Virus record (IMG/VR): IMGVR_UViG_2706794668_000002
DNA from: a virus
Lineage: Duplodnaviria; Heunggongvirae; Uroviricota; Caudoviricetes
DNA: 25,358 nucleotides
Reading direction: 5' to 3' (one strand)
Shown here one piece after another: positions 1,117 to 16,034 of this stretch. Under the pieces are notes generated by a model. The model was not told where the DNA came from and ran no database searches. It was given only the letters and a program-made list of their open reading frames with translations. Position numbers and translations under genes: made by a program. Every line of letters begins with the position of its first letter. Positions within the stretch are counted from its first letter, which is position 1.

Positions 1117-1320
1117 GGGTCCTTTCCGGCGATCCGACAGGTTACGGGGCGGAAGGCGCGCGGGTTTTCGCTATTTATGACAATTTTCCGGTTTAAGGCG
1201 TTTCCGTTCTTCTTCGCCGTAACCTAATGTTTTTATTTAAAACACCCCCTGAAAAGAAAGGAAACGACAGGTGCTGAAAACGGGCTTTTTGGCCTCTGTC
1301 GTTTCCTTTCTCTGTTTTTG
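1117..1320 (+). other. cos: cos site in joined form: cosQ-like GGGTCCT (1117-1123), cosN core (about 1141-1164, cohesive-end equivalent 1147-1158), cosB with Nu1-binding R elements (R3 about 1198-1216; R2 1257-1270 and R1 1297-1310 as an inverted pair) and an AT-rich IHF-type segment (1221-1245)
   Basis: Sequence 961-1146 matches the lambda right end (...GATCCGACAGGTTACG) and 1159-1335 matches the lambda left end (CGCGGGTTTTCGCTATTTATGA...GGAAACGACAG...CTGTCGTTTCC...) directly upstream of Nu1. GGAAACGACAG and CTGTCGTTTCC form an inverted repeat visible in the sequence. Confidence 0.85.
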
Positions 1321-1335
1321 TCCGTGGAATGAACA

Positions 1336-1855
1336 ATGGAAGTCAACAAAAAGCAGCTGGCTGACATTTTCGGTGCGAGTATCCGTACCATTCAGAACTG
1401 GCAGGAACAGGGAATGCCCGTTCTGCGAGGCGGTGGCAAGGGTAATGAGGTGCTTTATGACTCTGCCGCCGTTATAAGATGGTATGCCGAAAGGGATGCT
1501 GAAATTGAGAACGAAAAGCTGCGCCGGGAAGTTGAAGAACTGCGGCAGGCCAGCGAGACAGATCTCCAGCCAGGGACTATTGAGTACGAACGCCATCGAC
1601 TTACGCGTGCGCAGGCCGACGCACAGGAGCTGAAAAATGCCAGAGACTCCGCTGAAGTGGTGGAAACCGCATTCTGTACTTTCGTGCTGTCGCGGATCGC
1701 AGGTGAAATTGCCAGTATTCTCGACGGGATCCCCCTGTCGGTGCAGCGGCGTTTTCCGGAACTGGAAAACCGACATGTTGATTTCCTGAAACGGGATATC
1801 ATCAAAGCCATGAACAAAGCAGCCGCGCTGGATGAACTGATACCGGGGTTGCTGA

Positions 1856-1881
<26 letters not shown>
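1336..1881 (+). CDS. nu1: terminase small subunit Nu1
   Basis: 181-aa ORF MEVNKKQLADIFGASIRTIQNWQEQGMPVLRGGGKGNEVLYDSAAV... is essentially the lambda gpNu1 sequence, same length, with an N-terminal winged-HTH. Its end overlaps the start of A. Confidence 0.95.
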
Positions 1882-5615
<3,734 letters not shown>

Positions 5616-7332: not shown

Positions 7333-8358
7333 ATGTCGATGTACACAACCGCCCAGCTGCTGGCGGCAAATGAGCAGAAATTTAAGTTTGATCCGCTGTT
7401 TCTGCGTCTCTTTTTCCGTGAGAGCTATCCCTTCACTACGGAGAAAGTCTATCTCTCACAAATTCCGGGACTGGTAAACATGGCGCTGTACGTTTCGCCG
7501 ATTGTTTCCGGTGAGGTTATCCGTTCCCGTGGCGGCTCCACCTCTGAATTTACGCCGGGATATGTCAAACCCAAGCATGAGGTGAATCCGCAGATGACCC
7601 TGCGTCGCCTGCCGGATGAAGATCCGCAGAATCTGGCGGACCCGGCTTACCGCCGCCGTCGCATCATCATGCAGAACATGCGTGACGAAGAGCTGGCCAT
7701 TGCTCAGGTCGAAGAGATGCAGGCAGTTTCTGCCGTGCTCAAGGGCAAATACACCATGACCGGTGAAGCCTTCGATCCGGTTGAGGTGGATATGGGCCGC
7801 AGTGCGGCGAACAACATCACACAGTCCGGCGTCACGGAGTGGAGCAAGCGTGACAAGTCCACGTATGACCCGACCGACGATATCGAAGCCTACGCGCTGA
7901 ACGCCAGCGGTGTGGTGAATATCATCGTGTTTGACCCGAAAGGCTGGGCGCTGTTCCGTTCCTTCAAAGCCGTCAAGGAGAAGCTGGATACCCGTCGCGG
8001 CTCTCATTCCGAGCTGGAGACAGCGGTAAAAGACCTGGGCAAAGCGGTGTCCTATAAGGGAATGTATGGCGATGTGGCCATCGTCGTGTATTCCGGACAG
8101 TACGTGGAAAACGGCGTCAAAAAGAACTTCCTGCCGGACAACACGATGGTGCTGGGGAACACTCAGGCTCGCGGTCTGCGCACCTATGGCTGCATTCAGG
8201 ATGCGGACGCACAGCGCGAAGGCATTAACGCTTCTGCCCGTTACCCGAAAAACTGGGTGACCACCGGCGATCCGGCGCGTGAGTTCACCATGATTCAGTC
8301 AGCACCGCTGATGCTGCTGGCTGATCCTGATGAGTTCGTGTCCGTTCAACTGGCGTAA
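7333..8358 (+). CDS. E: major capsid protein E
   Basis: MSMYTTAQLLAANEQKFKFDPLFLRLFFRESYPFTTEKVYLSQIPGLVNMALYVSPIVSGEV... 341 aa from ATG 7333, matching lambda gpE. The track ORF begins at an upstream in-frame ATG at 7306. Confidence 0.95.
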   Translation: MSMYTTAQLLAANEQKFKFDPLFLRLFFRESYPFTTEKVYLSQIPGLVNMALYVSPIVSGEVIRSRGGSTSEFTPGYVKPKHEVNPQMTLRRLPDEDPQNLADPAYRRRRIIMQNMRDEELAIAQVEEMQAVSAVLKGKYTMTGEAFDPVEVDMGRSAANNITQSGVTEWSKRDKSTYDPTDDIEAYALNASGVVNIIVFDPKGWALFRSFKAVKEKLDTRRGSHSELETAVKDLGKAVSYKGMYGDVAIVVYSGQYVENGVKKNFLPDNTMVLGNTQARGLRTYGCIQDADAQREGINASARYPKNWVTTGDPAREFTMIQSAPLMLLADPDEFVSVQLA

Positions 8359-15784: not shown

Positions 15785-16034
15785 NNNNNNNNNNNNNNNN
15801 NNNNNNNNNNNNNNNNNNNNNNNNNNNNNNNNNNNNNNNNNNNNNNNNNNNNNNNNNNNNNNNNNNNNNNNNNNNNNNNNNNNNNNNNNNNNNNNNNNNN
15901 NNNNNNNNNNNNNNNNNNNNNNNNNNNNNNNNNNNNNNNNNNNNNNNNNNNNNNNNNNNNNNNNNNNNNNNNNNNNNNNNNNNNNNNNNNNNNNNNNNNN
16001 NNNNNNNNNNNNNNNNNNNNNNNNNNNNNNNNNN
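15785..16034. other. run of 250 N (assembly gap or masked bases) spanning the K 3' end and I 5' end
   Basis: Literal n characters. The K frame enters the run and the I frame leaves it. Confidence 0.99.

Follow-up and report, generated by a model that had tools for sequence, protein, structure and literature searches.

A divergent right-half cosN allele at a lambda-type cos site

Introduction

Can a lambda-type cos site serve for DNA packaging when five of the six bases in one half of its cohesive-end sequence depart from those of lambda? The question is raised by a viral sequence of 25,358 nucleotides (Caudoviricetes; IMG/VR record IMGVR_UViG_2706794668_000002), hereafter called the window, in which positions 1147-1158 read GGGCGGAAGGCG in place of the lambda 12-mer GGGCGGCGACCT. 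The original prediction offered two readings of this difference: either the terminase tolerates, or uses, a different nick-site half, or cosN has degenerated and the prophage is unable to package itself.

A framework for choosing between these readings is provided by studies of the lambda site. Base pairs 7 to 12 of cosN vary naturally and without effect on cleavage, TerL being positioned by cosB-bound TerS (Feiss et al. 2015, PMC4669245). The left half is sequence-critical, and it is conserved together with the flanking CG pairs and cosQ, a 7-bp site; R3 and the distance between cosN and R3 are critical as well (PMC4669245). Natural differences within bp 7-12 are common: N15 and phiD326 depart from lambda at positions 9 and 12, and Gifsy-1 at positions 8, 9 and 11 (PMC4669245). 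The C11G change has no phenotype, while the symmetric change, G2C, lowers the yield about tenfold (PMC4669245). The lambda bottom strand is nicked between bp 12 and 13 (PMC9026076). The cosN sequence of mEp213/LLS is GGGCGGCGCGCT (PMC12315714).

Sequence and register of the cos region

Direct reading of the window gave GACAGGTTACG up to position 1146, GGGCGGAAGGCG at 1147-1158 and CGCGGGTTTTCGC at 1159-1171. The register of these segments was examined by aligning the window with lambda (as prophage DE3), phage 2H10 and two E. coli prophages. The alignment was gap-free, and bases 13-64 of the lambda sequence J02459 fell on bases 13-64 of the query, making window position 1147 the equivalent of lambda bp 1. 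Thus, the lambda 12-mer and its register had been given correctly when the difference was first pointed out, and the difference itself is real: cohesive-end positions 7, 8, 9, 10 and 12 are changed, all of them in the right half, where AAGGCG replaces the lambda sequence CGACCT, and C11 is kept (7/12 positions identical).

The whole of cosN (1145-1160; 16 bp, unstranded) consists of GGGCGGAAGGCG between two CG dinucleotides, which direct reading placed outside both nick positions, at 1145-1146 and 1159-1160. Its left half, GGGCGG (1147-1152, plus strand), is identical to that of lambda in the alignments; its right half is the variant AAGGCG (1153-1158, plus strand). Upstream, the heptamer GGGTCCT (1117-1123, plus strand) corresponds to cosQ, the packaging-termination signal. 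It lies at -30 to -24 from the cohesive end, 20 nt before ACG-GGGCGG, and is invariant in the alignments; its location is equivalent to that of lambda cosQ, which we take to be lambda bp 48473-48479. Downstream, the cosB region contains the R3 core CGTTTCCGTTCTT (1199-1211, plus strand), a binding site for TerS (Nu1) that belongs both to a repeat family and to an inverted pair; the R2 core (1254-1266, minus strand), inverted relative to R3 and R1 and found in inverted pairs; and the R1 core CGTTTCCTTTCT (1300-1311, plus strand), of the same repeat family as R3. All three are identical to their lambda counterparts. The cosN-to-R3 distance also equals that of lambda, the alignment being free of indels over this interval. 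With cosQ, the CG pairs and R3, R2 and R1 all intact, the surroundings of cosN are as lambda-like as had been claimed.

The genes for the terminase small subunit, Nu1 or TerS (1336-1881, plus strand; 181 aa), and large subunit, A or TerL (1856-3834, plus strand; the interval contains a run of N at 3140-3434), follow cosB. The cos site is joined, with DUF1398 and YlcI/YnfO genes on its upstream side and the late operon on the other, in agreement with the prophage or circular arrangement first proposed. In summary, lambda (J02459/DE3) and the window share cosQ, the flanking CG pairs, GGGCGG, C11, the cosN-to-R3 spacing and R3, R2 and R1, and they differ at five right-half positions. A GGGCGG left half, flanking CGs, the proper cosQ distance, a complex cosB and adjacent Nu1 and A genes were each looked for and found; the CGACCT right half is absent, and is no defining feature of cos (PMC4669245). 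By each defining feature examined, the window site is a lambda-type cos. It is not an N15-type cos: N15 reads GGGCGGCGTCCG followed by CGCAGATTCTCGC, versus AAGGCG, the flank CGCGGGTTTTCGC and lambda R sites in the window.

Other natural variants provide a useful comparison. Like the window, N15 (GGGCGGCGTCCG) and phiD326 vary in the right half only and have a G at position 12; the N15 cosN is cut and packaged by lambda terminase as well as cosN-lambda (132 and 120 pfu per cell, respectively; PMC4669245). N15 has two changes relative to lambda, at positions 9 and 12, and a simple, non-lambda cosB, whereas the window has five changes and a lambda-type cosB. Gifsy-1 and mEp213/LLS represent the same class of polymorphism with other hexamers; Gifsy-1 alters position 11, which is kept in the window.

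The right half differs as a block

Outside the hexamer, 13 of 260 aligned columns (5%) differ between the window and lambda. Against this background, five changes within one hexamer have a binomial probability of ~1.8e-6 (~5e-4 when corrected for all hexamer windows), pointing to a block difference rather than to ordinary drift. The changes reduce the rotational symmetry of the 16-bp cosN to 8/16 bp, versus 10/16 in lambda. Two of the five symmetric pairs present in lambda disappear (3/10 and 6/7), pair 2/11 and the two flanking pairs persist, and 4/9 arises as a new pair. A private mutation or an assembly error is ruled out by the recurrence of the sequence in complete genomes, IMG/VR and GenBank phages (see below).

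Two possible sources of the hexamer were considered. Inversion of the lambda right half accounts for 4/6 positions by eye and is unconvincing. The hexamer AAGGCG is also present 42 bp downstream of 1153-1158, at 1195-1200 (lambda bp 49-54), where R3 has its left edge. Copying from this location would have proceeded without flanking microhomology, and the chance of a hexamer match within 240 bp is about 1 in 10; the resemblance was left as a coincidence.

Inspection of the region revealed a 17-nt inverted repeat, 1139-1155/1209-1225, between the cosN region and the sequence just past R3, with 14/17 matches, three of them supplied by the AAG of the variant. This score was reached by 2 of 100 shuffles. 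The equivalent repeat scores 8/17 in lambda, 11/17 in a canonical relative and 12 to 14 at most AAGGCG sites; the first two values exclude it as a conserved cos feature. Separately, the cosN-R3 spacer of the window carries an A-to-C change at 1181, cohesive-end position 35 (ATGACAAT). Missing in four aligned relatives, it is common to six IMG/VR contigs, all of which are AAGGCG carriers.

Recurrence of the AAGGCG allele

Complete E. coli genomes were searched with a 36-mer placed across the hexamer and designed so that any 28-base seed must contain it. The variant 36-mer occurred at 85 places in 80 of 5,426 genomes, 70 of these places being chromosomal and 15 on plasmids, many of which are ~46 kb in size. 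The corresponding lambda-allele 36-mer occurred at 8,101 places in 4,279 of the 5,426 genomes. Among the lambda-type cos sites of E. coli, AAGGCG thus has a share of ~1%.

In IMG/VR, the first 120 contigs listed for the pattern TACG-GGGCGG-N6-CGCGGGTTTTCGC comprised 116 with CGACCT, three with AAGGCG and one with CGACCG; the samples in this database are redundant, and canonical counts from it apply among the matches listed. Exhaustive scans for non-lambda hexamers in strict lambda flanks returned AAGGCG on 51 contigs, with at least 12 different left flanks. The same scans yielded TGACCT twice and AGACCT, CAACCT, CGACCG, AAGGCT, CAGGCG, AAGCGT, CAGACG and CTGACG on single contigs. When the flanks were relaxed (cosQ followed by N20 and ACG-GGGCGG), the right halves recovered included CGTCCG (the N15 type), GAGCGG, CGACCG, CAGACG, CAGCGG and others; within this wider lambda-like family, each right half is tied to its own cosB type. 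AAGGCG, CAGGCG and CAGACG form a chain of single steps, and the passage between CAGACG and CGACCG takes three substitutions or, alternatively, a compensated one-base shift. Observed alleles can therefore be arranged in a stepwise path that leads from the lambda allele to AAGGCG, and this path may be the one actually followed.

The allele is found in many sequence contexts: the sequence to its right occurs in 31 haplotypes, which differ at as many as 61 of 723 nt, and that to its left in 34. Four of the left flanks also occur, unchanged, beside canonical sites. At the same time, the IMG/VR loci (L011-L280) showed AAGGCG to be linked to a downstream haplotype with C at ~+70, reading CCGTAAC, versus TCGTAAC or TCATAAC at canonical sites. 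Because of this linkage, an old lineage spread by recombination fits better than repeated mutation.

The hexamer spectrum in lambda flanks has two discrete peaks, CGACCT and AAGGCG, with one-step neighbours rare. Leaving AAGGCG aside, polymorphism of the hexamer in a sample of 56 haplotypes was 0.003, as low as that of cosQ or R2, versus 0.03-0.05 in neighbouring spacers. The two-peak spectrum hints that the right half is not drifting freely and that some constraint exists beyond the simple model in which its sequence is of no account. Selection for end compatibility could produce such a spectrum, or equally two old lineages combined with redundant sampling.

AAGGCG in phages and phage-plasmids

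Among deposited phages, GGGCGGAAGGCG is carried by Escherichia phage PhiR46_1 (PV340565). This phage is of the N15-like telomere type; telL/telR are annotated in its record, and its Nu1/A module is of the lambda type. In a published study, a panel of the authors' lambda-related temperate phages was screened for plaquing. PhiR46_1 was taken to be the same phage as a member of this panel listed under another name, since its GenBank batch holds other PhiR names from the panel's table. A phage with an AAGGCG cosN thus appears to exist as an isolated, propagated stock. Our search for a deposited phage record beginning at GGGCGGAAGGCG, which would be evidence of determined termini, found none.

The sequence GGGCGGAAGGCG, a lambda-type cosB, Nu1 and A are shared by PhiR46_1, the phage-plasmid YDC107_1 (CP025712) and prophages of E. 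coli 582 and APEC E14033. The first two of these are telomere phage-plasmids of the N15-like kind, and their left flank (GGCAGGCTACG) is not quite the same; the window, by contrast, covers the late region of a chromosomal-type lambdoid prophage. AAGGCG, already present in GenBank phages, is one more, unusually divergent, allele of the known right-half cosN polymorphism. A literature search with the 12-mer returned only an unrelated plant paper and none naming the allele, with a survey devoted to cosN variation (Vahanian et al. 2017, Virology 509:140) and the work of Brenes & Laub (2025) lying beyond its reach.

The N15-like telomere phage-plasmids of this group (telL/telR, ParAB, ~46 kb; PV340565, locus L274, and loci L007 and L006) carry a lambda-type cosB and Nu1 and not the simple cosB of N15. 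Moreover, Nu1 of the plasmid pEC21Z151-46K (WP_000453567.1) is identical to Nu1 of a lambdoid prophage in the E. coli 582 chromosome. N15-like and lambdoid phages are thus two types between which the packaging module has passed.

Terminase genes linked to the two alleles

The window's Nu1 protein differs from that of lambda at 3/181 residues, all conservatively. In gpA, three differences fall in residues 1-428 and none in 510-641; residues 429-509 are masked by N. The original description of both proteins as almost identical to those of lambda was therefore accurate over the 181 residues of Nu1 and the 560 visible residues of gpA. The masked segment corresponds to 3140-3434, where 295 N stand in place of 242 nt of homologous sequence. 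The apparent disruption of gene A, which ends at 3502 in the list of open reading frames, is an artefact of this run and says nothing on function. Since residues 429-509 are masked, the sequence of the window is no basis for judging the intactness of its gpA or the activity of its prophage, but it contains no sign of a broken gene A. A second run of N (15785-16034, 250 bases) lies in the tail-tip gene region (K/I).

Better material is offered by other sites carrying the allele. Where 2.7 kb or more of sequence follows the site, an intact gpA reading frame (~641 aa) was present at 31/34 AAGGCG sites (91%), versus 49/65 canonical sites among the matches listed. In an alignment of 65 unique gpA sequences, taken from loci of both alleles, no column separated the variant-linked from the canonical-linked proteins. 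The canonical site L079 and the variant site L143 share exactly the same 641-aa gpA, four identical Nu1 proteins were found beside both alleles, and the nearest canonical-linked gpA lies 0 to 5 residues from each variant-linked one.

Proposed cleavage of the variant site

We conclude that the window site is very probably a working lambda-type cos with a natural right-half cosN allele, AAGGCG, and that the window prophage could use it for packaging. The changes are confined to bp 7-12, and every element published as conserved or required is intact; hence our reading that the altered half is tolerated. Of the options put forward at the outset, tolerance by the terminase is the one that held up, the changes lying only in base pairs that are experimentally insensitive to substitution (PMC4669245). 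Tolerance of five simultaneous changes, including the loss of pairs 3/10 and 6/7, would be an extension of what was found with single changes and with the two changes of N15.

Cleavage could proceed as follows. Nu1 dimers would bind R3, R2 and R1 of cosB, while IHF bends the R3-R2 interval. Once bound, Nu1 would anchor a first gpA endonuclease over that half of cosN which lies nearer to cosB; placed by geometry and without reading bp 7-12, this gpA would nick the bottom strand between bp 12 and 13. A second gpA would read the left half GGGCGG and the flanking CG and nick the top strand. From the lambda register, the top-strand nick (N2) is expected between 1146 and 1147 and the bottom-strand nick (N1) between 1158 and 1159, for a predicted 12-nt staggered 5' overhang of variant sequence. 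The virion would carry the 5' overhangs GGGCGGAAGGCG and CGCCTTCCGCCC, annealing as stably as those of lambda; the predicted annealing energies are -18.6 kcal/mol for the variant ends and -19.0 kcal/mol for lambda.

Alternative explanations

Could the block change in the right half have abolished nicking, leaving the prophage as a packaging-dead remnant? Five of six bases differ, rotational symmetry falls from 10 to 8 of 16 bp, and many lambda-type cos sites of E. coli, whose canonical 36-mer is present in 4,279/5,426 genomes, lie in cryptic prophages. Random decay, however, is not expected to keep an identical hexamer in dozens of diverged backgrounds, or to leave all other cos elements perfectly conserved. 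The right half is also known from experiments to tolerate change, gene A is intact at 91% of AAGGCG sites, and a temperate phage that has been isolated carries the allele. We regard a dead site as very improbable, and the suggestion that cosN is degenerate and does not support packaging finds no backing in an allele that accounts for ~1% of E. coli lambda-type cos sites, mostly beside an intact terminase, and occurs in a temperate isolate. A gpA whose altered specificity requires AAGGCG is, in our view, just as improbable. It would agree with the discreteness of the allele, which has few intermediates in the lambda-flank context, and with its linkage to the downstream haplotype with C at ~+70. 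Yet identical 641-aa gpA and Nu1 proteins stand beside both alleles, no gpA column discriminates between them, the nearest proteins are 0 to 5 residues apart, and lambda TerL itself does not discriminate between the cosN right halves of lambda and N15 (PMC4669245). Co-evolution of TerL or TerS with the allele was rejected on the grounds of the shared proteins and of the missing gpA column; nor is there support for the idea that a different nick-site half is used through altered specificity.

A third explanation concerns the fate of the ends rather than their cutting: AAGGCG and CGACCT would be two end types held discrete by selection, chromosomes with mixed ends being unable to cyclize. Cross-annealing of lambda and AAGGCG ends has a predicted energy of -9.5 kcal/mol with 6 bp paired, versus -19 for matched ends and -15.3 for lambda with N15, and the lambda-N15 end mismatch already costs about fourfold in yield (PMC4669245). 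The allele spectrum has two peaks, and the alleles can co-reside: E. coli 582 has four matching cos regions, one of which is variant. On the other hand, the linkage to the downstream haplotype allows a simpler origin of the peaks, in two old lineages that recombination has shuffled; sampling in IMG/VR is redundant, and canonical sites were counted among the matches listed. As an account of the window site, we consider this explanation quite unlikely. The broader proposal, that AAGGCG and CGACCT are mutually incompatible ends of one lambda-specificity terminase kept discrete by selection against mismatched-end chromosomes, is speculative and in our judgement unlikely. A tolerated natural allele remains the preferred reading of the site. 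The original prediction had added that its suspicion of a changed or degenerate site would fall if the same variant proved common among functional lambdoid phages. This is largely the case, the allele being recurrent, associated with an intact gene A and present in PhiR46_1, though the statement does not hold in full.

Implications

To judge from sequence comparison, the variant is an ordinary natural allele, with no sign of a dead or retargeted packaging system. One practical consequence concerns annotation: a lambda-type cos with a sticky end other than GGGCGGCGACCT should not be scored as defective. With its five substitutions, AAGGCG also represents a natural test case for the model in which TerL, anchored by cosB, nicks the bottom strand irrespective of the sequence of bp 7-12.

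If a chromosome had a lambda end on one side and an AAGGCG end on the other, pairing would be limited to bp 1-6; the bottom-strand nick would stay unpaired and for this reason would probably not be ligatable. Modelled in this way, the two alleles probably define incompatible end types despite one shared terminase specificity. This suggests that there are at least two cohesive-end compatibility classes among lambda-specificity phages, which bears on phage crosses, on helper packaging and on the prediction of termini from the lambda 12-mer. If selection did keep the types apart, the right half of cosN would be a reproductive-isolation or compatibility label among co-resident lambdoid phages, not a neutral sequence.

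Distribution across species

In a scan of one genome per species, cos sites with lambda flanks were confined to Escherichia and Shigella, apart from vector-like fragments elsewhere. Escherichia sp. E1V33 carries AAGGCG. The fragments elsewhere comprise a ~400-bp lambda cos piece, 99.3-99.8% identical, in Raphidiopsis brookii D9, Aeromicrobium sp. PE09-221 and a 39.7-kb 'plasmid' of Alicyclobacillus fastidiosus, and a 261-bp piece in Archangium violaceum (in all, L190 2226-2626, L191 2213-2614, L193 1834-2233 and L192 5246-5505). These look like cos cassettes of cosmid or fosmid vectors, or contamination.
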